Below, one piece after another: positions 7,579-35,476 of a DNA stretch of 64,000 bases. This stretch comes from Candidatus Obscuribacterales bacterium (lineage in GTDB: Bacteria; Cyanobacteriota; Vampirovibrionia; Obscuribacterales; Obscuribacteraceae), in assembly GCA_965228855.1 (NCBI GenBank), contig CBDDIJ010000002.1, positions 1,088,001 through 1,152,000 of the forward strand, given 5' to 3'. The stretch's first letter is position 1, and each line of letters opens with the position of its first letter. The notes beneath the pieces are model-generated. The model ran no database searches. It was not told the origin of the DNA and worked only from the letters and a program-made list of their open reading frames with translations. The position numbers were made by a program, and so were the translations under genes.

Positions 7579-7637
7579 TGTTTTTGGCTACGCGTGAATG
7601 ACGCTTTTTCGAAAATCCGGCAACGAGGCGTAGACAA
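7579..7637 (+). repeat. Palindromic CTACG...CGTAG repeat, copy 1
   Basis: 55 bp identical to 7724-7778; homologous to copies at 22.6, 29.2, 32.5 and 32.7 kb. Confidence 0.9.
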
Positions 7638-7723: not shown

Positions 7724-7785
7724 TGTTTTTGGCTACGCGTGAATGACGCTTTTTCGAAAATCCGGCAACGAGGCGTAGGCAAAAT
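7724..7785 (+). repeat. Palindromic CTACG...CGTAG repeat, copy 2
   Basis: Direct repeat of 7579-7633 at a 145-bp period. Confidence 0.9.
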
Positions 7786-22519: not shown

Positions 22520-22630
22520 CTCGCAATTATATCTGAACCCTTGTCTACTATCGAATACCGTGTAAGTCGCACCCGAAAAGCCGCTATGGCACTGGGTCTA
22601 CAGCGGCGCTACTCATAACGCCGACTTCCA

Positions 22631-22686
22631 TGTCTACGACAGAATGCCGAATTCGGAGAAAAGCGTCATTCTGTCGTAGACAAAAT
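22631..22686 (-). repeat. Palindromic CTACG...CGTAG repeat, copy 3 (perfect 16-bp inverted repeat)
   Basis: TGTCTACGACAGAATG 22631-22646 / CATTCTGTCGTAGACA 22667-22682; minus strand reads TTTTGTCTACG..GAATGACGCTTTT..CGGCA..CGTAGACA. Confidence 0.85.
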
Positions 22687-22771: not shown

Positions 22772-25700
22772 TTAAAGCTCTGCCATGCAGGTCACCTGTG
22801 GTTTCGGGTGACGGCAGAACTGGCTGCCGCCGGACTGCAGGTGCATCAGCACAGCTGTTGTTTTCAGCAGTTGCTTTGCTGTTCGTCTGGCGTGTGGCTG
22901 ATTCGATTGCATGAGCTCGCGCAGCGGAAGTATTGCAGACATCGCTGAGGGAATCGAATATTGGCTACTGAAGGCTTTTAAACCGTTCTCGAGCGACTGC
23001 GACGAAACGTACCGGTGACTGATCGCATCAGCCGGGTTAATCTCTGCCAGGCTGCCAATCGAATCCTTTGCGATCACAGCGCTTTCGCCCGGCAATACTT
23101 TGATGCGCTTGCCGCCAGCGGTGACGCTCACGGAATTGCTGTTCTGATCGTGCAGATTGTAGACTGCAATGCCGTCGGAGAAGGCGAGCACAAGAGCGAT
23201 AGAGCCTGCACCGACCTTTACCGATCCGAATTGCGTTTCAATACATCTGTCCTTTTCCGGAGCGGCAAGAATGCTTCCCCTCTGTAGGTTGAAGCTAGAC
23301 GCGGATGTGAAGCCGGTTTCGAGGATTCCCGGGATAGCACCACTTTCGAGTTCCGTTTCGCTCTTCCAGCCTTTCTTGAATTTGGTACCAAATTCGGTGG
23401 CGGTGAGAATGGGCGACGACGAACCGGAGATTGTGTTTATCAAACCTATTTCGCCCAAGGAAAACGCGTGTGCGCCTGTCTGTCCGCCTGCAATCTCAAG
23501 GAGCATCTCGGCGTTTTGAATTTGAGAATCAAATGTGTTTGTTAAACCGACTGAAATTGCAGGTTGAATCTCAGGCAGAACCGAGAGAGAGTCATTCGAT
23601 GAAACACCCGCACTGGCTTGGCTTGCAAGCACCTGCCCGTAATTAGCACCTCGGCGCGCCACGGTATTTGTGGCGGACAGCGTCGGTGCCGGAGCGGGTG
23701 GGTCGGCCGTAATTGAGACAGCGTCGTTTACTATGATCGCGCCTGGACCTGCTTTGCCAGCACTGAAGATGACATTGCCATTGATTAGGTTTATTGTGCT
23801 CGAACCGTTAGTAGTTATGCCGTTATTGAAGAAGACCGTTCCTCCGGAACCGTTAATCGTTACGCCTGAAGGAGTTGTTCCTGTCACCAATGGTGGTGGC
23901 AAGGTTCCGATTACGAATTGCACAGTACCTCCGCCGATAGAAGTTGAAAAGCTTGCGACAGAAGACAGAAAGCCCAGAGTGATAGAGGAGCCTTTCCCCT
24001 TGCCCAGGTTGTTGAGCGTGATTTCGCCATCGGTGGAAGTTATGCTGGCAAATGAGTTTAGATTCATGGCGCCACCGCCAGTGATGATAGTCACTGACTT
24101 GCCCGTCACTCCGGCGATGTTGATTCCGGCTGATGCCGAGATGTTGACGTCTCCTCCGCCTGCTACAGTTCCCAATTCCAGCGTTGTTTTCTTTGCCAGG
24201 CTTGCGATGTTGATGGCGCCGGATGAGCCAGCAAAAGCATTCGCTATTAGGTTAGTCGTTTGAACTGCCAGGGGCACGGCGCTGCTACCCAACGCGCCTC
24301 CTAGACTACTATCAAAGTTGACGGAACTTGCCGGACTTTCAGTGGTCAGGATTTTCACCTTTGTAGATGCTTGAGTGATATCTCCTGCTACCGCCTGCAG
24401 AGCGATTGAATTGGTTGATTTTGTTGAGCCTATGCTGGTGTTTAAGACAATTGCACCACTCTTTATGGCGATGGTCAGAGCCGAACTCAGTTTTGCGTTG
24501 ACGGTCACAAGATCGTCTGAAGTCAAAGATACGTTGCCTTTAGAGGTGCTCTCCACAAAATTGAGAGGACCAGCTGCCGAATTATTCGCGCTCACGTCGC
24601 CTGCGGCGTTCAGCGAGAGGTTGATTGCAGCGGTCTTGATGGGGGTGGCGAGACTTCCGATAGTTCCGGCGTCTGCAAACAAAACAATCGTGCCTGCAGA
24701 TAGCCCGCTCGAGGCCGGATCGTTCTGTATGGAAGAGCCAGCTCCTTTGCCTGTGCTTATTTCAATTTTGCCGTCATTACTGGTAGTGACACTTCCGGCT
24801 GCACCGAGGTTGATGATACTGTCGACCCCGGTGCTTGTGAGTATGACATTGAAACCGCTGATAGCGTTGTTGATCTGAATTGCGCCGGTCGATTCGAAAA
24901 TAAACTCTCCGGCGGTAGAGCCGGAAGCGCCCAGAGTGACCGCGGCCGCAGTATTGGAGAGGTTTACGCTGTCGCCACCATTGGCGGTGATGGTTTGAGC
25001 GCTGACGCCGAGTGCCTTCTTGCCGCCAATCACTCCGGTTTGCGTCGAGAGATTGAGGGTATTCGCTGTAATCGATTTCTTGCTTGTAATATCACCGGTG
25101 CCTGTAACGGTCAAAGTGATCTGGCTGGTAGTCGCGTTGCCCAGTACGTTGCCGAGAGTTATACTTCCATTGTTCGCACTGAATGCGATACTATCGAAAC
25201 CGAGAAGATCTCTTGAGAGTGTCACACCGCCACCATTATTGGTGACAGTCAGGTCGCCGGCTGAGCTGCCATTGGCTATCACGGTACCAAGAATTGCGTT
25301 TGTGCCCTTCTTCGCGCCGAACTCAAAGGCAGTGGAACTGTTGGATTGAAGAACCACATTGCCACTTGCTCCGCTATTGCTGCCACCGCTCACGTCGAGA
25401 TCGCCTGTGATTAGAAGGGCTCCTGGTCCGCTCTCGCCGGCAACCAGCGTGACATTAGTGCCGCCGGCGTCAGCCGCGAACGGGCTGATATTCAGTGCGT
25501 TTGTAGCGACGGACAGGTTGCCGCCGGTTATGATACTGACGTTGCTTTGTGAGAGGATTTGGCTTCCGGCGCTGATTGAGAACTGTCCGTTAGCTGTTCC
25601 GATCGTCAACGGCGCCGTGCCCAGCTGATGCAGCGATAGGGAGCCGGCTCCGTCCCCCTGTCTCACACTTAAATTGACATTCTGTGTCGCGTCCGCGACC

Positions 25701-28700
25701 AGTTGTCCGGCTTCGATTGATATAACTCCGCCTGTTCCGAGGGCGGTAGTGCCGGCGTGAACGGCGCCGTTGCTGATGGTGACAATCTGGTTTGCTGCTG
25801 CTTTGAAGTTGATGTTTCCGCCGTTGGCTCCAAACGATCCGGTGGCGGAAAGCAGATAATCACTTCCTAGCGAAACGTTTGTTTGTCCGCCACGAAGTTC
25901 GAGTGTGATCGAACCGCCGGCGCCTCCGTCGATGCCGTCAGCATAGAGCGCTAGAGGAGCCAACCCCGTGATGGAAATGTCGCTTGCTTTGAGGGTCAGG
26001 GCACCGCCGTTGAAACCGGAAGTCCCTTGCACGCTCAACAAATTGGTGGGCAAGTGGATGTCTCCATTACCGGCGTCAAAGAAGAGAGTTCCGCCTCTGC
26101 CGTTGCCGGGCGCGTAAAGGATGTTGCTTAGCGAGTTGATGTTGATGTCTTGATTTGAGATGAGGTAGATTGTTCCACCGTTCGTTGTTCCGTTTGCCGA
26201 GATCGAGTTGACGGAGTTTGTGCCGGCGCTGCCGATGTTGAGCGTGGTGCTGCCGAGCGCAGTTATATAAGCTGTTCCGCCGCTGCCGGATGGAGAGGAG
26301 GCCGTTAGATTGTTGAGGTGGACGTTGTTGCCCGCGAGGACATAAATGCCGGCTCCGACGGCTTTGAGGTCGTTTGCTGATATATCGGCGGTATTCAACG
26401 TCGAGGTAGTGTTAAACGGATCGCCAGAGAAAATCTGGGCTACCTGTAGACTGATGTTTATGTTGCCTGATGGCGCTACATATGGTTGTGCTGTCTGCAG
26501 CTGCACTCCACCGGGACCGAGTGCAGGCAATGGGCTGGGATTCGAACCGGTAGAGTCGATATCTCCTACCGATATGGCGGTTCCTGAGGTTTTGCCGGCC
26601 ACAATTTTGACTGTTCCATCGAGGCCGCTGCCGTTTGTTCCTGAAAGGATCGGCACATTGGTAGGAACCCTGATGTCGCCGGAGTTGTCACTGCCTGCGA
26701 ACGCTGCGAGCGTGATACCGAATGTGGAACCAGTTGTAACTGGTGCGCTGCGAAGTTCCGTTATCGGATTTGTTTCAAAATCGATTTTCCCTCCGGTCGC
26801 GGATGCGCCGGTTATGCTTACGCTGTCGCCGTTTGTGGTGAATTCGGCTCCGGCAAAAATGGTCAATGCACCGCTCTGCAGAGTTGTTGCTGAAGTTTTA
26901 ATCGCCAATCCGGGAGCCGCGGATACAATGTCATGGCCGGAGAACATGCCGATGCCGCCTGGCGCTAGAACATCACCGTAAAGGGAAATTGTGTCGCCTG
27001 CGGCAAGACCAATACCGAGAGATGTGGCGGTTGACTGCAGAACGCCGAGAGCGTCTATTGTCGAATCCGTAGCAACTGAGATTCTGCCCGATGACATGAC
27101 ATCGCCGTTGATCACGATGTCCGCATTGCCAGGGTTCACAAAGCTTCCGACCAGGAAGTTGCCGGTCGTAATCGCGCCAGCCGAGTTGATGGTCATTACG
27201 GTGGACGAGTTTCCCAGAAATTCGGGATTTCCGTTGGAGATGAAGACGTTGCCGGCGCCGGTTCCGCCACTGTGACTGATACTACCGATGTTGATTCCAA
27301 TCCCTGAAGTTGCGCCGGCGGCGATTGAAACTAAACCATTTACGCCAGTGCCATTGCCGCTGGCGTCGATATTGCTTCCACTTGGAAGGAGTATGTTGCC
27401 TGTGCTTGCGTTGATGCCGTATGCCGCCAGGATTATGTTTCCTCCGGCATTGTTCCCTGCTGTGGAGTTGCTGTTGATTGCTAATGTTGCACCAGCACTG
27501 TTGAAATCGATGCTGCCGCCGGTGGCGCTAGCGCCTGTGAAGGAGATGCTGCCGGTCGTTGGTGTACCGGGAGGGAGTGAGGTCGTCTGTTCGGCCAGGT
27601 TGCCTGTGACGTTGGCGCCGGCGACGATAGTGATATCGTAACCCTTGCCTGCGCCATCCTGGGCTTGAATCAGGCTGACTCCTGAGGTCGCGACGATGCT
27701 TCCACTTGCTACGATGGCGAGTGCTTCTCCGACCGAGATGTCACCGGTCAAAGTGATGTTGCCTGCAGCGTTGAAGTAGGTGGGATCACCGGTCAAGCAT
27801 TGCTGGCCTATGATGAGATTATCCGTATTGGCATTGACATGAACAGCGGTGCCCGATGAAACAACTTCGCCGGTAAGTTTTTCTACATTGACATCGGCCA
27901 AGCCATTTCCGGCATTGATCAACAATCTGCGCGAAAGGAGATCGCCACCACTGATGGTGGTATTGGCTGAACCGGTGTAGGCTGCGGATCTGAGGGCTAT
28001 GTCTCCGTTGGATGCGGAGAGCACGCCTCCGTTGTTTTCGACATGAAGGGGCTGTGAGTTAAATGAGTCTAGAACGATGTTTCCGGACTGCGATGAGATT
28101 GTTCCGCTGTTGGATATGTTTTTAGATTCAAGTGATATGTCGTGCACAGCCGAGATGTTTCCGCCGTGATTGCTTAGATTGCCACCGGATTTGATGGCAA
28201 GACTGCCGGAGCTGCTAATCGTGCCCGCGTTGTCGAAATCAGCCAAAGTGGACATGGTGAGGTCAACTGTCGATGCTCTGGAGCGGTCGATAGTTGTTAT
28301 CGTTCCGGTTGCCTGGTTGTCGATGCTCTGGGCGGATATGACTGCCTGTCCGCTGTTGCCGCGAACGGTTTGGCTCACAGTTCCGTAGTTGATGAGGTTG
28401 CCAGAAATGTCTATTTGCGAGCGGCTGTTGACTCTATCAACTGATTGAACAGCTTCCGGGATGACCACGTTGTGGATTGAATTTGCCTGTCGGCCGCTTG
28501 TTAGGTTTGAAAGCGAGAATGTGCCACCTGTAGCCTTACCGCTTTGGTCAACTGTGAGCGTCTGTCCTCTGCCCGTTTGTGCCTGTTGGAATGAAACAAA
28601 CTCTGCAGCGGAAACGCTGTCACCCTGTTGGATGGTCTTTATTGAGTCTCCCACCTGAATGGTGACGGACGGACCGCGCCTGAACATATCTTGCTGGATC

Positions 28701-28987
28701 ACAATGGAAGCGAGGCTTGAACTGAGATCTAGATCGATCGGTGTTACCGAAGGGGCACTGTATGTGTTTATGACCGGCTGGTTGCGGCTTTCGTTTCTCA
28801 AATTCAGACGAGCCTGCGCGTTCTGCAGTTTCAAATTGTGGAAACCTACATGCGGCACGCGACCTTGGCGATCGAACTGATTGTCGTGTGCTAGTGCCGG
28901 CGCGGCAAATTGCTGGATTAGCACAGCCGAAGAGAACAGTTTCACTCCAAGCGAAAGCGACGTATCTTTATTCATAGATAACTCCAA
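22772..28987 (-). CDS. Giant secreted beta-solenoid (haemagglutinin-like) surface protein with FecR-like C-terminal domain
   Basis: 2071 aa; signal ending ALA; G/S/T/N-rich GGxIxL repeats; N- and C-terminal blocks shared with 49330-56931. Confidence 0.8.
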   Translation of the reverse strand: MELSMNKDTSLSLGVKLFSSAVLIQQFAAPALAHDNQFDRQGRVPHVGFHNLKLQNAQARLNLRNESRNQPVINTYSAPSVTPIDLDLSSSLASIVIQQDMFRRGPSVTIQVGDSIKTIQQGDSVSAAEFVSFQQAQTGRGQTLTVDQSGKATGGTFSLSNLTSGRQANSIHNVVIPEAVQSVDRVNSRSQIDISGNLINYGTVSQTVRGNSGQAVISAQSIDNQATGTITTIDRSRASTVDLTMSTLADFDNAGTISSSGSLAIKSGGNLSNHGGNISAVHDISLESKNISNSGTISSQSGNIVLDSFNSQPLHVENNGGVLSASNGDIALRSAAYTGSANTTISGGDLLSRRLLINAGNGLADVNVEKLTGEVVSSGTAVHVNANTDNLIIGQQCLTGDPTYFNAAGNITLTGDISVGEALAIVASGSIVATSGVSLIQAQDGAGKGYDITIVAGANVTGNLAEQTTSLPPGTPTTGSISFTGASATGGSIDFNSAGATLAINSNSTAGNNAGGNIILAAYGINASTGNILLPSGSNIDASGNGTGVNGLVSIAAGATSGIGINIGSISHSGGTGAGNVFISNGNPEFLGNSSTVMTINSAGAITTGNFLVGSFVNPGNADIVINGDVMSSGRISVATDSTIDALGVLQSTATSLGIGLAAGDTISLYGDVLAPGGIGMFSGHDIVSAAPGLAIKTSATTLQSGALTIFAGAEFTTNGDSVSITGASATGGKIDFETNPITELRSAPVTTGSTFGITLAAFAGSDNSGDIRVPTNVPILSGTNGSGLDGTVKIVAGKTSGTAISVGDIDSTGSNPSPLPALGPGGVQLQTAQPYVAPSGNINISLQVAQIFSGDPFNTTSTLNTADISANDLKAVGAGIYVLAGNNVHLNNLTASSPSGSGGTAYITALGSTTLNIGSAGTNSVNSISANGTTNGGTIYLISNQDININSLSNILYAPGNGRGGTLFFDAGNGDIHLPTNLLSVQGTSGFNGGALTLKASDISITGLAPLALYADGIDGGAGGSITLELRGGQTNVSLGSDYLLSATGSFGANGGNINFKAAANQIVTISNGAVHAGTTALGTGGVISIEAGQLVADATQNVNLSVRQGDGAGSLSLHQLGTAPLTIGTANGQFSISAGSQILSQSNVSIITGGNLSVATNALNISPFAADAGGTNVTLVAGESGPGALLITGDLDVSGGSNSGASGNVVLQSNSSTAFEFGAKKGTNAILGTVIANGSSAGDLTVTNNGGGVTLSRDLLGFDSIAFSANNGSITLGNVLGNATTSQITLTVTGTGDITSKKSITANTLNLSTQTGVIGGKKALGVSAQTITANGGDSVNLSNTAAAVTLGASGSTAGEFIFESTGAIQINNAISGFNVILTSTGVDSIINLGAAGSVTTSNDGKIEISTGKGAGSSIQNDPASSGLSAGTIVLFADAGTIGSLATPIKTAAINLSLNAAGDVSANNSAAGPLNFVESTSKGNVSLTSDDLVTVNAKLSSALTIAIKSGAIVLNTSIGSTKSTNSIALQAVAGDITQASTKVKILTTESPASSVNFDSSLGGALGSSAVPLAVQTTNLIANAFAGSSGAINIASLAKKTTLELGTVAGGGDVNISASAGINIAGVTGKSVTIITGGGAMNLNSFASITSTDGEITLNNLGKGKGSSITLGFLSSVASFSTSIGGGTVQFVIGTLPPPLVTGTTPSGVTINGSGGTVFFNNGITTNGSSTINLINGNVIFSAGKAGPGAIIVNDAVSITADPPAPAPTLSATNTVARRGANYGQVLASQASAGVSSNDSLSVLPEIQPAISVGLTNTFDSQIQNAEMLLEIAGGQTGAHAFSLGEIGLINTISGSSSPILTATEFGTKFKKGWKSETELESGAIPGILETGFTSASSFNLQRGSILAAPEKDRCIETQFGSVKVGAGSIALVLAFSDGIAVYNLHDQNSNSVSVTAGGKRIKVLPGESAVIAKDSIGSLAEINPADAISHRYVSSQSLENGLKAFSSQYSIPSAMSAILPLRELMQSNQPHARRTAKQLLKTTAVLMHLQSGGSQFCRHPKPQVTCMAEL

Positions 28988-29224: not shown

Positions 29225-29279
29225 TTGTCTACGACCGAATGCCGGAATTCGCGAAATCCGTCGCTCTCCCGTAGCCAAA
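29225..29279 (-). repeat. Palindromic CTACG...CGTAG repeat, copy 4
   Basis: Minus strand TTTGGCTACG...GACGGATTTCGCGAATTCCGGCATTCGGTCGTAGACAA. Confidence 0.85.
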
Positions 29280-29389
29280 GCCCGTCTTTTCGAGGCAACC
29301 GAGGAGGTTAAAACGTCGAAAGCCCATCTAGGCGTGCGCGGACGGCTTTGTGAGTATATGTCGGCATATAGTAGGCGGGGTGTGAGGGG

Positions 29390-29412
29390 CAGGAAGCCGG
29401 AAAGGCTTCCTG
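29390..29412 (-). terminator. Hairpin ending the GC-rich operon (C-rich tail)
   Basis: CAGGAAGCC/GGCTTCCTG 9-bp stem just after the stop at 29423. Confidence 0.5.
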
Positions 29413-29422
29413 GTATTGCGTT

Positions 29423-29746
29423 TCATTCGTGGTCGGGCTTCAGGAAGATCCTGTTCGACCAGAAGCTTGCGGTTGTGAGACCGAGGGCACTGCCGCTGGC
29501 CATAGCCAGAAGCGTCATGGCAGTGTAGCCTGCGATGTAGGGATTCAACCCGATAGCGGAGAGCGCGTCGATGAGGACCTCGGACTCCTGTGCGTAGAAG
29601 ATAAGTCCGAGGTTGATGTACGCGATGGAGAGCCAAGTCACGAGGGGAGGAATCGGCCCGCGCGATGCGACGGATTTGCTGATCAGGATGCCGGCGACGA
29701 AACCAGCGCACGCAAACAGGAGAATGGCGATGTTGAGCTCGTTCAT
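29423..29746 (-). CDS. Small three-TM hypothetical membrane protein
   Basis: AAGGA RBS; three hydrophobic segments. Confidence 0.7.
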   Translation of the reverse strand: MNELNIAILLFACAGFVAGILISKSVASRGPIPPLVTWLSIAYINLGLIFYAQESEVLIDALSAIGLNPYIAGYTAMTLLAMASGSALGLTTASFWSNRIFLKPDHE

Positions 29747-29781
29747 GAACGTTTTCCTTGTTCTCGCGTTGAAGCAGTTGC

Positions 29782-30207
29782 TTAGCCGTGGAATGCCGGC
29801 TGTCTCGTATACTCGAGCCAGACGTTGATCTGCCCGTCGTCGTTGGCGTACGGGTTGATCTCCATCCGGATGCCCTGCGCCGCCAGCCGCTCGGTGGCAG
29901 CCGCCAGCACGCCGGGCGTCGGGTAGAAGTTGATGTACTGGTTGGTGCCCTTCGAGATCGTGCCGCTGCAGGTGCGACGGGCGAGTTCGGCGGCCATGTC
30001 GTCGACCCAGGCGAGCGGGTCGGTCGACTTGCCGGAGGCGGCGTGCTTGGCGAGAGCCGTGTGCACGACCGGGTCGAAGCGCGTGTTGATGTAGACGATG
30101 AGCTCATCGGGACCGCAACGGCGAGCGCTGCGTTCGATGGTGACGGGGTTGACGAGGACGCGCAGGTGTTTGACACCTGTGGGTTCGCCGATGGTTGCTA
30201 CAAACAT
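29782..30207 (-). CDS. Hypothetical protein (GC-rich operon)
   Basis: GGAAAGG RBS before ATG 30207 (MFVATIGE); strong C/G codon-ending bias. Confidence 0.7.
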   Translation of the reverse strand: MFVATIGEPTGVKHLRVLVNPVTIERSARRCGPDELIVYINTRFDPVVHTALAKHAASGKSTDPLAWVDDMAAELARRTCSGTISKGTNQYINFYPTPGVLAAATERLAAQGIRMEINPYANDDGQINVWLEYTRQPAFHG

Positions 30208-30255
30208 GGCATTACCTTTCCTGTTTGAATGCCGTATAAGCTGCGCAGGCGCTGA

Positions 30256-30290
30256 GCAGAGAGGAGGCGACCGAAGCCGCCCCCTCTCTT
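30256..30290 (-). other. Intergenic hairpin with a cUUCGg tetraloop
   Basis: Minus strand GAGAGGGGCGGC-TTCG-GTCGCCTCCTCTC. Confidence 0.6.
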
Positions 30291-30312
30291 GTCTCAACGG
30301 CTCATGCTGTTT

Positions 30313-30960
30313 TCAGAACAGCGTGAGCTGGTCCGGGTGGACCTTCTGCTTGCGGCGCCGAGTGCGCGGCTTTGCGAAGGTTCCGGTGGGCGGAACCTGC
30401 GCCGTCTTCGCCGCGACTGCCGGGGCGGAGGTGGTCACCGTCACGGTCACTGTCACCGTCGCCGGGGCTTCGGTGCTCTCCGGTGCCGTGGACGCGGTCG
30501 GTTTCGCCACTGGAGCGACGTCCGTCTTCGTCTCGACCGGCTTGACGACAGGCGCAGCAGCCTTCGTCGTCTCGGGTTTCGCTGCCAGCGCCGGCGCCTT
30601 CATCGTGAAGTTGCAGCCCCAGGTGCCGTCTGCGCGGACCCTGGCGGTCTGGTTCTTCAGTTGGGCGATGGCGTCGAAGCAACGGCGCGCCTTGATGGGG
30701 CGCTCGTCGAACGAGTCGTAGCGAACATCGCTGTCCGCCACAACGTTGAGGCGAAACGTCCGCCACTTCTTGCCGTCGAAGATGGCGGAGCGGAACTGCC
30801 CGGACCACACTCGAGCGCCAGGCTTGAGGTGGCACCAGAGCTTCATGTCGCCGACCTTGGCATTGCGCTGAACCAGCTCCCGTGACGGAAAGATTTCCGC
30901 CAGGGCACCAGTCACGAGCGTTCTGCCGGTCAGCACGATCGGTTCTTTGCTGTCTTTCAT
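30313..30960 (-). CDS. Hypothetical protein with A/T/P-rich linker, basic patch and C-terminal QLTLF
   Basis: AAGGAG RBS; 215 aa; codon bias matches neighbours. Confidence 0.75.
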   Translation of the reverse strand: MKDSKEPIVLTGRTLVTGALAEIFPSRELVQRNAKVGDMKLWCHLKPGARVWSGQFRSAIFDGKKWRTFRLNVVADSDVRYDSFDERPIKARRCFDAIAQLKNQTARVRADGTWGCNFTMKAPALAAKPETTKAAAPVVKPVETKTDVAPVAKPTASTAPESTEAPATVTVTVTVTTSAPAVAAKTAQVPPTGTFAKPRTRRRKQKVHPDQLTLF

Positions 30961-30984
30961 AGATGCTCCTTTCTTTTTTTGGAG

Positions 30985-31803
30985 TTAGGAAAAACTACTG
31001 GAGGCTTCCTCCGCCCTCGTCATCGTCGCCACTTCCCACTGCCGCTGAACTTGCGGTTGCGGGGCGATTTGACGCTGACGGCAGAGTCCTCCATCCATGG
31101 CGCTGACCAGCGCGCGACGAGCGTCCGTCTCGAGCTCTTCGAGTTGGAAGCGGAGCGCGTCGCTGTCGTTGAGCTGCTCCACCATGGTCTGGAGCAGTTC
31201 AGTCAGGCTGTCGTAGCGAGCCAACCAGCGGCGCGCATTCAGGAAAGTGGCGTCGCCGTCGAGCCTCACGGCATCAACGACTTCGTCCCCACCCAGATGC
31301 GAACGCAGCGCCAGATAAGTCGCCACTGCACGGTCCCAGGCTTGCGGCTGGTTGGTGCGTGCGCGCCCGACATACGCCTCGATTGCCGCCGGCAGCTCGT
31401 CAGCTGCCACAGCCTGGCGAAGCGAGTCGATCGCGCGTGCTGCCTCGAGCGTGAAAGCCGCCTGTCTCCAGGCGTCGACCATCTCGGGCAGTTCTTCGGG
31501 CTTCTCAGGCTCCAGCAGGTGGAGCAGGAAGCGCTCGGACAACACACGGCGGAGACCGTCGGTTTCGTCCGAGTTCAGGGTCATGAGGTCGAATTCGATA
31601 AGCCCGTTCGAGCGGCTCGTGTTGAGCGTTTCGATGAGCTCGTGATACGCGTCCTCGACCTGGTCGTCCAGCGCGAGATGTTTCGCGCGTGCTTCGCGCT
31701 GACCGTCAGAACCGTCTCGCTGCAAGGCGAGCCAGTCCTCTTTCGCGGTCTCGCGATTCTGCAGCAGCGTGAGCAGCTGCGAGATTTTGAGTTTGAGTGT
31801 CAT
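30985..31803 (-). CDS. Hypothetical alpha-helical/coiled-coil protein
   Basis: GAGGAGG RBS; L/E/A/R-rich 272 aa. Confidence 0.7.
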   Translation of the reverse strand: MTLKLKISQLLTLLQNRETAKEDWLALQRDGSDGQREARAKHLALDDQVEDAYHELIETLNTSRSNGLIEFDLMTLNSDETDGLRRVLSERFLLHLLEPEKPEELPEMVDAWRQAAFTLEAARAIDSLRQAVAADELPAAIEAYVGRARTNQPQAWDRAVATYLALRSHLGGDEVVDAVRLDGDATFLNARRWLARYDSLTELLQTMVEQLNDSDALRFQLEELETDARRALVSAMDGGLCRQRQIAPQPQVQRQWEVATMTRAEEASSSFS

Positions 31804-31935
31804 GGTAATACCCTCCTCGAAGCGCAGCCCATCGAAGTCTCGCGACCTCGACCAACGCGCCTCATTTTTTTTTAGTCACGGTGAGTAAAACCGCATTCCG
31901 CTGTTGGCTGCGCACGCGCAACTTGCAACGAAACC

Positions 31936-32200
31936 GGAAAACCGTCTTCGCGTGCTAGCGAGAACGGTTTCTGGCTTTACGCCAGAGCGACACTTCACTG
32001 GTCTTCCAACAACGGCAGTTGAAAAATTGCGCTCAACAGACCGTCGTCTGCTGACCGCAATGCTCCAAGTAACGCGTAAGCTCGCGCTAGTTATTCCAGA
32101 ACTCGTTGATTAAAACTGGTTTGCAACGCGTTCAGCTCGCACAAGTCTGTCACCACCCGTGATACCGTCCCTGTCCGTGAAGGAAGGAGAAGTTTACTGA
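31936..32200 (-). promoter_or_regulatory. Candidate conserved structured leader motif, copy C
   Basis: Minus strand GCAATTTT (32030), GAAGACC (32006), hairpin TCTGGC/GCCAGA, CGCTAG (31960), GAAGACGGTTTTCC (31949). Confidence 0.5.
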
Positions 32201-32456
32201 AGTGATGAGGAGAGCAGGTGTTAGCTGGAATAATGCCTTGTTTTAGGTGGCTAGAGAAATGTATCTCGACCGTACTCTTATAGCTTTGGCTAAGCAAGAA
32301 ATGAGTCGATGGACTATATCTTCTGAGATTAGATCTCTTCGTATTTCCCCTACTCGCCCGCGCGCGCGTAATAGCGCGGTTCGCGAGAGCAGATTGACTA
32401 CTAAACCGACTAGCTACTAGATAGTATAAAAAGTCTATGTGACGGCGAGCGGCGTT

Positions 32457-32648
32457 CGGCAAGGCATTCCGGATCGACGCTTGGCTTAAGGTCTGTTTTG
32501 GCTACGGCTCGTAGACGCTTTTTCGAAAATCCGGCATCGTGGCGTAGACAAGCGGGGTTTCTCTCAGCCCTGGCGAGATGGTGAATTGCTCGAAAGTCTG
32601 TCTGGGAGCGGGCTGTGCTCCCAAGAAGACTACGGAAAAATATAGTAG
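32457..32648 (+). repeat. ~218-bp-period repeat unit containing palindrome copy 5 (32496-32551), ending ATATAGTAG
   Basis: 32457-32548 nearly identical to 32674-32766; tail homologous to 34020-34121. Confidence 0.9.
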
Positions 32649-32673
32649 GCATGGAGTGGTGGCGGCGCTTGTC

Positions 32674-32766
32674 CGGCAAGGCATTCCCGGATCGACGCTT
32701 GGCTTGAGGTCTGTTTTGGCTACGGCTCGTAGACGCTTTTTCGAAAATCCGGCATCGTGGCGTAGA
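32674..32766 (+). repeat. Left part of the repeat unit with palindrome copy 6, interrupted by IS110
   Basis: Identity to the previous unit stops at CGTAGA and resumes at 34020. Confidence 0.9.
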
Positions 32767-32780
32767 TAGTGTGTTAGGTG

Positions 32781-33743
32781 TCAAGCCAGAGTGCTGTTAA
32801 ACCTGGAATCGAATGGTTGTTTCGAGCGATATACAGCGACCATCATACGGAGAAGTTTGCGTGAGGCGGCACAAACAATTACTTTTCTGTTTTTTCCCTT
32901 TGCTGCCAGTCGTTTAGCGAATTCAGCCACTGGCGGATTAAACCGAGTGGCGGTAAGGGCGGCCATGTACAACATGCTGCGGATCACTGGATTTCCCATC
33001 TTCGAAATTCTGGAACGTCCTCGGACTGAAGAACCGGACTCACGGATCATGGGATTCAGACCACAGAATGCTTCGATCTGGCGCAAGCTCGTAAACGAGT
33101 CCATCATCGACAGTTCTGAGAGAAACGTGAATGCTGTTCTCCAGCCGACGCCCTTAATCGTCTGGAGTAATTTAGCGTTGCTTTTCAAAGCAGGATTCTC
33201 GGAGACCAGCGTCTTCGCCAGCTTTTCCAGTGTTTGAATTTCGTTGGTAATGAACTTCAACATACGCATCTGAGAGTCTAAAGCGCGCTGGTCCAGGCGT
33301 CCCGATTTCATTCGATTTGTGACTTGGGTTTTGGTTTTCTTTAGCGCAGCGAGCTCTCTACAAATGTCTCTCAGGGAGCGAATGTCAGGATCCATCGGAG
33401 ACCAAGGAAGGGGCTCCATTTTAAAACAAAAGTCGGCGATGATTTCCGCATCGATTGCGTCGGTTTTTGAACGTCTAAATTGGCTCTTGCCGAAGGCGTG
33501 TATCAGCGCTGGATTTACCACGCTGACTCGATAGCCAAGTTTGTGTAGAAACTCCGCAAGGGGCTCCCAGAGCTTCCCCGTAGCTTCCATGCAAAAGTGA
33601 ACATCCTTACCGGATGCTTGAATCCATTTGACTATTCTCTTGAACCCAGCTGGGTTATTGCTGACGTGCAGCTTCGAATTCTTCCTGTCCTGGCGATGGC
33701 AGTCTAACGTCTCCTTCGATACGTCGATTCCAACAAAGATCAT
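32781..33743 (-). CDS. IS110-family DEDD recombinase/transposase
   Basis: GIDVSK, CMEATG, KTDAIDA, TIKGVG, ESGSSVRG (catalytic Ser), RKLL; AGGAG RBS. Confidence 0.97.
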   Translation of the reverse strand: MIFVGIDVSKETLDCHRQDRKNSKLHVSNNPAGFKRIVKWIQASGKDVHFCMEATGKLWEPLAEFLHKLGYRVSVVNPALIHAFGKSQFRRSKTDAIDAEIIADFCFKMEPLPWSPMDPDIRSLRDICRELAALKKTKTQVTNRMKSGRLDQRALDSQMRMLKFITNEIQTLEKLAKTLVSENPALKSNAKLLQTIKGVGWRTAFTFLSELSMMDSFTSLRQIEAFCGLNPMIRESGSSVRGRSRISKMGNPVIRSMLYMAALTATRFNPPVAEFAKRLAAKGKNRKVIVCAASRKLLRMMVAVYRSKQPFDSRFNSTLA

Positions 33744-33772
33744 TGCTCCTACCTCCTGTTGCTGGTTCGCTT

Positions 33773-34005
33773 GGACGCGGATAGAATCTTGTCAGGGCGA
33801 GCCTTGTTTACACGTGCTAAATCGGTCAGGATTTGCTGTAGATAGTGTTCAGCCTTAGAGGACAAGACAGGAGCGGAAGTCCGAAATCTACGCCTCTGAC
33901 TTTCTAGCCGGAGACAAAATACTGGTTTCTTCCGCTCCTCTATCCTCGCGTCCTCGGATAGCCTTGCCGACTGCACGCTCCTGGTCAACAGCAACGTACC
34001 AGTCA
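33773..34005 (-). ncRNA. Bridge RNA with target-binding and donor-binding loops (ends approximate)
   Basis: Guides ATTTTGTCT (33920-33912) and GGCGTAG (33894-33888) inside stem GGAGCGGAAG/CTTCCGCTCC; ACACTATCT (33848-33840) and ACAAG (33807-33803) inside stem TCTTGTC/GACAAGA. Confidence 0.85.
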
Positions 34006-34019
34006 ACATCTAACGTACA

Positions 34020-34121
34020 AGACAAACGGAGCGTCCTAGGTCTGGACGGGATGATGAATCGCTGGAAAGTCTCTCTGTGACAGGGTCTTGGTTTCGATGG
34101 CAGTACGAAGGAATATAGTAG
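34020..34121 (+). repeat. Right part of the IS110-interrupted repeat unit
   Basis: AGACAA.CGG...GATG.TGAAT.GCT.GAAAGTCT.TCTG...AATATAGTAG aligns with 32546-32648. Confidence 0.85.
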
Positions 34122-34195
34122 TGGTTCTCTTAGGGGGTTTTGGTGGGGAAGGTGGAATAAGGTGTTGGGACCTCGAAACTTGATTGGAAACCTTG

Positions 34196-35476
34196 ATGAC
34201 GCACAGTGAATTTGCCGAAAGGACCACGCAGCCGATCTACAAACGGCCGCGGGTGCTCATCGCCGATTGCTCCGAAGAGTTGCGCAACTCGATTGTGGGC
34301 TGGCAAAACGAATTGCTCTGCGAGATGTTTATCTGCGACGATCCGGACAGCTCGCTGATGATGGCTGCCGGAAAGAAATTCGAGGCGATCATCATCGGGG
34401 TGGAGGCGGGCGGCGAGGAGCGCGCCCTCAATCTGGCGAGCAAGCTGCATCAGCTTCCGGACAAGAAAAACGTTCCGGTCGCGTTTCTCTTGAGCGACAA
34501 AAGTTCCGAGTCGATTATCGAGAAGGCGCAGCCCAGGTGCTTCGTATGCTTCGAGCAGCCGGAAGACTTCGAGGCGATGGCGAAGATCTCGAATCGTTTG
34601 ATGATTTTCGAGCATTACAACGCGCTGGTGGTTTCATCGGTAGCGCCGGTCACGGCAAAGCTTTCCGGTGCGCTCAAAGATGCGAGCATCAACGCCCGCT
34701 GTTCCTTGCACCCGCACAGATATCTTGAATTTCTCTACGATTTCGAGCCCGAAGTGTTTCTGATCGATGCTGAACTCAAATCGCCAACGCCTGTCGAAAT
34801 CTGCGAGAAGCTTCATCGCTCGAAGAGATGGAATTCGATGGCGGTAATTCTGTTCAGTTCATCAGGTCGAGAGATTGAAACCGAAACGCTTGATCGCTGT
34901 CAGGCAGCGGCGTCGATAGACCTGACCGACGTCGAGAAAACTGGTGCGATCGTCAAAGGCATCGCTCGCGATGTTCGCGAAAAAGCGCAGAAAGGCACTG
35001 AAAATGACTATCTCACCGGACTGCCGTTGTCCAATCAACTGTACGAGAAATATGTTCCGTTGATGGCAGAATCCAAGGGAAGCCCATTAACACTTACTCT
35101 TGCGTTGATTGACATAAAACAGCTGAAGGATGTAAACGACAGCGCCGGTCACGTTGTCGGCGACAGGGTGCTGACTGCCGTAAGCAATTTCTTGATGCAG
35201 CGCGTCGATGGAACACCCGCGATGATTTGTCGATGGGACGAGGATGAATTCGTTGTTGTGCTCAAAGCCACTACTGAAGCTGCGAAATCGTTGATCAAAA
35301 ATGCGATTCTCGATTTTAGTTTGATCAAAATCCCGTCCTACGATCAGCCCGTGAGGCTGCGTGCAGGTGTTTCATCCTTCCCGGATGATGCGGCTTCACT
35401 TGACGCCCTTCTCGACCTGGCGGCATGGCGATTGCATACCGCCAAGAAAGAACCCGATGGGGTGTGCTTCAAGTAA
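34196..35476 (+). CDS. Tandem receiver-like domains plus degenerate GGDEF domain
   Basis: DYLTGL, LALIDI..LKDVNDSAGHVVGDRVL, RWDEDEF in place of R.GGDEF. Confidence 0.85.
   Translation: MTHSEFAERTTQPIYKRPRVLIADCSEELRNSIVGWQNELLCEMFICDDPDSSLMMAAGKKFEAIIIGVEAGGEERALNLASKLHQLPDKKNVPVAFLLSDKSSESIIEKAQPRCFVCFEQPEDFEAMAKISNRLMIFEHYNALVVSSVAPVTAKLSGALKDASINARCSLHPHRYLEFLYDFEPEVFLIDAELKSPTPVEICEKLHRSKRWNSMAVILFSSSGREIETETLDRCQAAASIDLTDVEKTGAIVKGIARDVREKAQKGTENDYLTGLPLSNQLYEKYVPLMAESKGSPLTLTLALIDIKQLKDVNDSAGHVVGDRVLTAVSNFLMQRVDGTPAMICRWDEDEFVVVLKATTEAAKSLIKNAILDFSLIKIPSYDQPVRLRAGVSSFPDDAASLDALLDLAAWRLHTAKKEPDGVCFK

Follow-up and report, generated by a model that had tools for sequence, protein, structure and literature searches.

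The window analysed here, a stretch of 64,000 nucleotides from a Candidatus Obscuribacterales genome, carries an IS110-family insertion sequence, element A. With a probability of about 0.9, A is an intact IS621-type element, present in three identical copies at the terminal CT of 54-bp palindromes, whose left end likely encodes a predicted bridge RNA that would guide the recombinase there. What is shown directly for A comprises its gene and ends, the complementarity of guides and sites, the unoccupied orthologous sites and the guide-target covariation; the steps of the mechanism are carried over from IS621. In the surrounding clade, a CT donor is probably joined naturally to GT, AT and TT targets by a change of the left target guide (LTG) alone, with the right target guide (RTG) still reading the donor C after exchange like a third handshake base; A and a sister element, B, with one shared donor, would have divided between them, by guide reprogramming, a palindrome family that clusters around the origin and was previously undescribed.

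The features of A and its surroundings, in window coordinates, are as follows.

32498..32551, no strand: empty tandem sibling palindrome, its left flank matching the LTG at 6/9
32716..32763, minus: remainder of the interrupted 54-bp host palindrome, starting with the right target ACGCC
32764..34021, minus: IS110 element A, both CT cores included (from three copies compared and empty orthologous sites in genome G007)
32764..32784, minus: right end, with the -35 TTGACA (32784-32779), the left donor ACACTAT (32772-32766) and the right core CT
32781..33743, minus: recombinase gene, 320 aa, DEDD RuvC and Tnp domains (from family models and alignment to IS621)
33773..34005, minus: predicted bridge RNA, its ends taken from IS621 geometry
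33801..33802, minus: donor-loop handshake GC, able to pair with target position 6 and, by wobble, with position 7
33803..33811, minus: right donor guide (RDG) GT-(AA)-ACAAG, with an IS621-like 2-nt bulge
33841..33848, minus: left donor guide (LDG) ACACTATC
33886..33887, minus: target-loop handshake AT, complementing donor positions 7 and 6
33888..33894, minus: RTG GGCGTAG, of the 7-nt extended type
33912..33920, minus: LTG ATTTTGTCT
33929..33938, minus: 5' arm of the target-loop stem, with its partner at 33879-33870
33969..34005, minus: predicted 5' stem-loop (from folding)
34012..34019, minus: right donor TGTAC and predicted weak -10 (34017-34012) of a circle-junction promoter, with the same 17-bp geometry as in IS621
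34020..34028, minus: left target and left core, matching the LTG at 7/9; 34025-34020 form the opening 6 bases of the palindrome that A interrupts
34114..34121, minus: satellite motif CTACTATA, ~88 bp from the palindrome edge; another lies at 32648-32641

The recombinase of A matched PF01548 and PF02371 in Pfam, as well as NCBIfam NF033542 with 233 bits against a cut-off of 140. Two solved structures matched it, IS621 best and ISCro4 second. Alignment with a fetched copy of IS621 gave 41% identity, with the wedge positions and catalytic residues kept (D7, E53, D95, D98 and S236 of A align with D11, E60, D102, D105 and S241 of IS621). The element measures 1256 bp with one core counted (left core 34021-34020, right core 32765-32764), and comprises a noncoding left end of 276 bp up to the start codon and a right end of less than 20 bp past the stop. 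Seven IS110 matches were found in the genome (G000), namely three copies of A, without a single difference across 1256 bp, and four of B. CT stands at both junctions in 3/3 A copies. In G007, a genome of the same genus, all three sites are unoccupied with one CT each, which fixes the ends of A and indicates recent movement.

Contig depth is higher over A than over its flanks, and a scan of genome contigs returned two distant loci only. No end-to-end joint of A was seen in the contigs, which cannot show a rare circle. Searches with blastn for A in E. coli genomes and with Rfam across 31500-35000 of the window gave no match. The guide strings likewise had no match in Durrant Supplementary Data file 4, a gapped, incomplete file in which a missing match does not demonstrate absence. 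Elsewhere in the window, an undisrupted 430-aa ORF (34184-35476, plus strand), which by its motif we take to resemble a receiver plus degenerate diguanylate-cyclase protein, ends far from A. A cluster of short ORFs at 29300-31900, between two palindromes and beside an A/T-richer gap at ~32050-32450, gives the impression of having been acquired, and a repetitive, secreted-looking ORF of 2071 aa (22772-28987, minus strand) is also flanked by two palindromes.

In the proposed mechanism, the ends of A would join to form a promoter, the -35 coming from the right end and the -10 from the left end, 17 bp apart. In the joined sequence, TTGACA lies 17 bp ahead of TACGTT, with a perfect -35 and a -10 that keeps only 3/6 consensus bases; this promoter, and an RNA start near 34005, are predicted by analogy with IS621. 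A linear promoter scan of 32400-34300, which is blind to joined ends, returned 0 sites. The bridge RNA would then hold the target in one loop and the joined ends in the other. Cleavage of the top strands after the core T would be followed by their exchange, aided by handshake pairs that suit the direction of insertion. Being intergenic and plentiful, the palindromes would offer harmless places to land, only some of which the guide reads.

The initial annotation had proposed an IS110/IS621-type bridge RNA from the letters of the window, and this assignment is now backed by the family models, by IS621 as the top structure match, by the empty sites and by guide-target covariation. Its guides and three stems all lie in their place on the minus strand, the donor junction ACACTAT-CT-TGTAC is correct with all guide positions matching the donor, and the IS621 donor that it had given, ACAGTAT-CT-TGTAT, agrees with the fetched IS621 copy. 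Other parts needed adjustment. The target guides were said to match the insertion site, which is true of the RTG (7/7), while the LTG matches at 7/9 in the window and differs at positions 1-2. The LDG, described as a 9/9 match to the right end, is 8 nt long by IS621 geometry, its ninth base, T, likely pairing with a bulged RDG base. The RDG, read as ACAAG, was too short; GT-(AA)-ACAAG covers 7 donor bases and is interrupted by a 2-nt bulge.

Guide numbering here follows PMC11208158 and PMC11208160. In both loops of A, the 5' sides copy and the 3' sides complement the target and donor. Across the three copies, the LTG matches at 7, 7 and 8 of 9 positions and the RTG at 7, 7 and 5 of 7, so that the occupied targets match 12, 12 and 11 of 14 guide positions. 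When the left end was shuffled 20,000 times, three guide words that were examined turned up by chance in 0.9%, 2.2% and 0.4% of the shuffles. Two differences between A and IS621 are compensatory, one linking donor position 14 with RDG 157 and the other within the RNA (pair 131/159). The AT handshake pairs with donor A6-T7, and the GC handshake with target G6-T7 through one wobble. Both face the opposite DNA, an arrangement that would favour strand exchange. Within the close clade, the second base of the donor-loop handshake varies with the target, being C where the target has G6 and T where it has A6.

Guides track insertion sites across related elements. A model, R1, was built from 9 close relatives and gave 55 hits in 100 loci, of which three were set aside (two lay on the opposite strand and one lacked a target loop), leaving guides from 52. 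Covariation was counted with one row per guide family for which a junction was found. At LTG positions 1-8, 119/152 bases matched in 19 families (permuted 54±7; 0/20,000), and at RTG positions 10-14, 71/90 bases matched in 18 families (permuted 34±4.5; 0/20,000), in both cases among rows that are kin, nine of which built R1, and with three rows shifted by one column kept in. For example, in the closest orthologue (L021, 85% aa identity), GG in the RTG is replaced by CT and the site reads ACGAG in place of ACGCC, within the same palindrome family. The R1 search did not hit IS621 itself, and the IS621 register was therefore set by hand.

A belongs to the known IS621-type bridge recombinases. IS621 of E. 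coli (PMC11208160, PMC11208158) and A are alike in their domains, catalytic residues, CT core and junction promoter spacing, as well as in a left-end RNA with a 9-nt LTG, a 7-nt RTG, an 8-nt LDG, a bulged RDG and two handshakes. Their donors are near-identical, with one base differing per arm, and both elements insert at CTAC inside an extragenic palindrome. A differs from IS621 in its protein sequence, in a longer left end with extra 5' structure, and in its target guides and repeat family. ISCro4/IS622 (10.1101/2025.05.14.653916; PDB 9t56) matches the A recombinase with an E-value of 2e-59 and likewise uses 14-nt recognition and handshakes; unlike A, it is 88% identical to IS621, has been tested in human cells, and is used with designs that pair matching cores. 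ISPpu10 of Pseudomonas putida (10.64898/2026.03.19.712850) is, like A, an IS110 element that enters intergenic palindromes, and distal LTG mismatches are tolerated; it differs in its repeat and in that a hairpin requirement has been shown for ISPpu10. Orthologues of the bridge-recombinase class have already been screened, 72 in number (10.1101/2025.05.14.653916).

Sister element B is 52% identical to A at the amino acid level, with an identical donor and most of the scaffold in common. Its copies lie in G000 at C2:987926, C2:198188, C5:1462393 and C5:861234 (L016-L019); L004 is a further copy. B carries the LTG AAAAAGCGT and the RTG CTATGAG, and its RDG is without the 2-nt bulge. It enters the inner arm of the same palindrome, with GT at its left junctions and CT at its right. 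Empty B sites read GT, both in the G000 orthologue of a G007 insertion and in two tandem siblings, and the inner-arm position of the palindromes is GT in 286, GG in 145, AT in 2, GA in 1 and never CT; for these two reasons, the target core of B is assigned as GT and its donor core as CT. A later mutation of a CT site as the source of the left GT was considered and rejected, since the position is G in 431/434 arms, with C in none of them, and the empty orthologous and tandem sites carry GT. The LTG of B follows the target core, while its RTG keeps AG.

This pattern extends beyond B. Eleven insertions with a non-C left core and both junctions seen comprise five GT, five AT (2 + 3) and one TT, and the right core is CT in 11/11; these insertions are not independent, and the right-end search forced CT for L018 and L056. 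The right end of L023 and the LTG register of L121 are uncertain, and empty sites were seen for the GT group only. The IS110 clade with an AT left core is family-wide and comprises L114, L118-L121, L123, L132, L005, L011, L023 and L028; its LTGs end in AT, and several members are broken or partial. In the right end of the B copy L018, a single base is changed at donor position 7. B copies are nearly identical, and the LTG takes 1/2 of the differences in L016 and 2/10 in L004, each toward the copy's own site, a possible snapshot, in sequence, of guide reprogramming. Although the donor 14-mer is common to A and B, 0/7 copies occupy the other element's target, which suggests cis preference or protein-RNA specificity.

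In IS621, the core C is free of protein contact, the facing RNA G is contacted, and the first core base is reported as less conserved (PMC11208158). Cleavage of the top strands follows the core T; the donor core then pairs with the RTG, and the bottom cuts leave a heteroduplex at positions 6-9 with the bottom strand unligated (PMC11208158; PMC13626964). Unequal cores could thus arise through top-strand-templated repair, or through top-strand-only insertion, giving the target core on the left and the donor core on the right. In earlier experiments, cores were changed jointly in both DNAs together with all four guide positions, or guides were mutated against fixed CT cores, and the end-calling pipeline defines cores as repeats (PMC11208160). 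Design requires matching cores (10.1101/2025.05.14.653916), and CT and GT cores serve as orthogonal channels (10.64898/2026.04.29.721476). Natural unequal cores are not described in the available portions of the papers cited here or of PMC11187229, PMC13604230 and 10.64898/2026.08.14.744561, with supplements partly covered and ISfinder and subscription papers outside the scope.

The palindromes entered by A and B form a large family. An iterated profile found 221 loci in the genome, of which 217 are 54 bp long and 211 are distinct; in the window, further 54-bp palindromes lie at 7584-7637, 7729-7782, 22630-22683 and 29225-29278. Each consists of four G[T/G]C-NNN hexamers of alternating direction in fixed phase, with an A/T-rich centre, and mean self-complementarity is 0.65. 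With our own crude gene caller, 219/221 loci fall outside called genes, 116 between tandem, 87 between convergent and 16 between divergent genes; comparison gaps of at least 80 bp in the same region number 397, 96 and 152, respectively. Most loci (179/221) are concentrated in a region surrounding dnaA and the skew switch that makes up 14.6% of the genome. A satellite, ATAGTAG, occurs ~67, 78, 89 or 100 bp off the edge, in 11-bp steps, at 165/217 loci (0.6% of random sides), and the spacers are unrelated. The pattern count is 164 in G000, 146 in G007 and one in G006, with 0 in the other 58 genomes searched and 0 matches in viral contigs. Along C2:1-1.2 Mb of G000, GC drops from 59% to 51% over the palindrome-rich region, and if C2, C3 and C5 join in that order, the replichores differ by ~1.2 Mb.

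REPs are extragenic, repeated, imperfect palindromes, with GTAG just 5' of the hairpin and RAYTs, Y1 tyrosine transposases, as their partners; IS621 is said to target those of E. coli. The family described here is REP-like, being extragenic, repeated and imperfectly palindromic, but no RAYT was found: a PF01797 search gave 0 matches in the genome, which is 95% complete, with a control matching 6/14. Like REP/BIME elements, the palindromes number in the hundreds, are intergenic, imperfect, often tandem, enriched between convergent genes and targeted by IS110. Unlike them, they have a 54-bp frame of four phased hexamers, a satellite in 11-bp steps, clustering around dnaA, and no PF01797 match. 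GTAG lies inside the last hexamer of 157/434 arms and in the satellite motif, and is not fixed at the 5' foot. Two palindrome loci had no match in Rfam, and a literature search on Obscuribacter palindromes retrieved two unrelated papers and no description of the family.

Other identities were also considered, among them integron-like cassette sites. Tyrosine-recombinase matches number 17, three of them near or inside the repeat-rich region by coordinates. A promoter with an upstream operator was not supported, the next gene ending toward the motif on 143/205 motif-bearing sides, and the parS motif gave one 2-mismatch site only. A search for an IS91-type transposase gave no match, its control being equally silent. 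The pMV158 rolling-circle origin reportedly has a binding site 84 bp from the nick, and the palindrome-satellite spacing may be likened to it by analogy. The favoured reading, at roughly even odds, is that the palindromes are REP-like sites, bound by a protein, whose spread was local; their phasing suggests a bent or looped protein-DNA complex.

The 233-nt region folds better than 200/200 shuffles (z -3.6), and in the alignment consensus, whose structure was derived from the same alignment as the stem counts, 93% of cells are paired and 20/40 pairs change on both sides. The guides had been expected in loops rather than stable stems: the nine-sequence consensus leaves both loops open, whereas the single-sequence fold closes the target loop, pairing LTG with RTG (unpaired probabilities 0.07 and 0.17), formally the outcome that the initial annotation had named as a refutation. 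To open all four guides takes 16.3 kcal/mol in A, 10.5 in IS621, 8.7 in L021 and 4.9 in B, and the target loop alone costs 11.8 in A, the highest of 28 guide sets (7.3 in IS621), because the target is itself a small inverted motif. That the RNA of A is now largely self-closed, its two target guides being complementary because the target is palindromic, and A damped or inactive, would fit the low LTG accessibility and this top-ranking cost, yet it is improbable: the identical triplicate and empty orthologous sites point to recent movement, the working IS621 RNA likewise misfolds in silico, and the IS621 recombinase binds conserved loop bases (PMC11208158). The outer stem noted earlier is present in the letters, but its comparative support (81% of cells paired; covariation score not significant, 67/500 shuffles) falls below that of a mutually exclusive local hairpin (98%; 0/500). 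In the window (33961-33940 and 33785-33773), GGATAG can pair with either CTATCC copy, in the local hairpin or the outer stem, a possible RNA switch.

Each A copy sits at the terminal CT of its palindrome (3/3), and the proposal that the guides are programmed against the host palindrome family held as far as targeting goes; the family as a whole is not read, with 24/434 ends matching at 12/14 or better. Eight genome sites differ from the programmed 14-mer at no more than one position; six of these are in palindromes, which make up 0.18% of the genome, and the sole perfect 14/14 site is empty. It is possible, if rather unlikely, that site choice needs the palindrome hairpin or a bound protein in addition to base pairing, as in ISPpu10, in which a target stem-loop increases efficiency according to the available part of the report (10.64898/2026.03.19.712850). 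All seven IS110 copies of G000 lie in palindromes despite 1-3 mismatches, and the 60 of 92 sites within two mismatches of the A target that lie outside palindromes are all unoccupied. However, selection removing gene insertions would yield the same pattern, the DNA fold of the palindrome in the window is weak (-6.2 kcal/mol, with a family median of -10.2), and A insertions number only three. A more tentative balance, just short of even, applies to the route of movement, which may be top-strand copy-out followed by top-strand insertion completed by host repair, as opposed to double-strand cut-and-paste. Such a route is reported in the available portions of studies on IS621 (10.64898/2026.08.31.748434) and CazIS110 (10.1101/2025.10.25.684509), and both junctions carry the top-strand pattern in 11/11 mismatched-core relatives; a double-strand model with a 4-nt staggered cut and an unligated bottom strand would leave identical junctions, and the two routes cannot be told apart from sequence.

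In summary, A is an intact and recently mobile bridge recombinase whose guides can be read and whose lineage is little studied, a candidate for orthologue screens. The GT-target and CT-donor insertions of B, together with the sites found empty, suggest that the core barrier can be crossed by setting the guides asymmetrically. Should such a setting work in IS621 or ISCro4, more sequences could be targeted, and cross-talk between 'orthogonal' cores would be a concern; if true, one universal donor could be aimed at any NT core. The A/B pair provides a natural test of guide reprogramming and of cross-reaction between bridge systems that share one donor.
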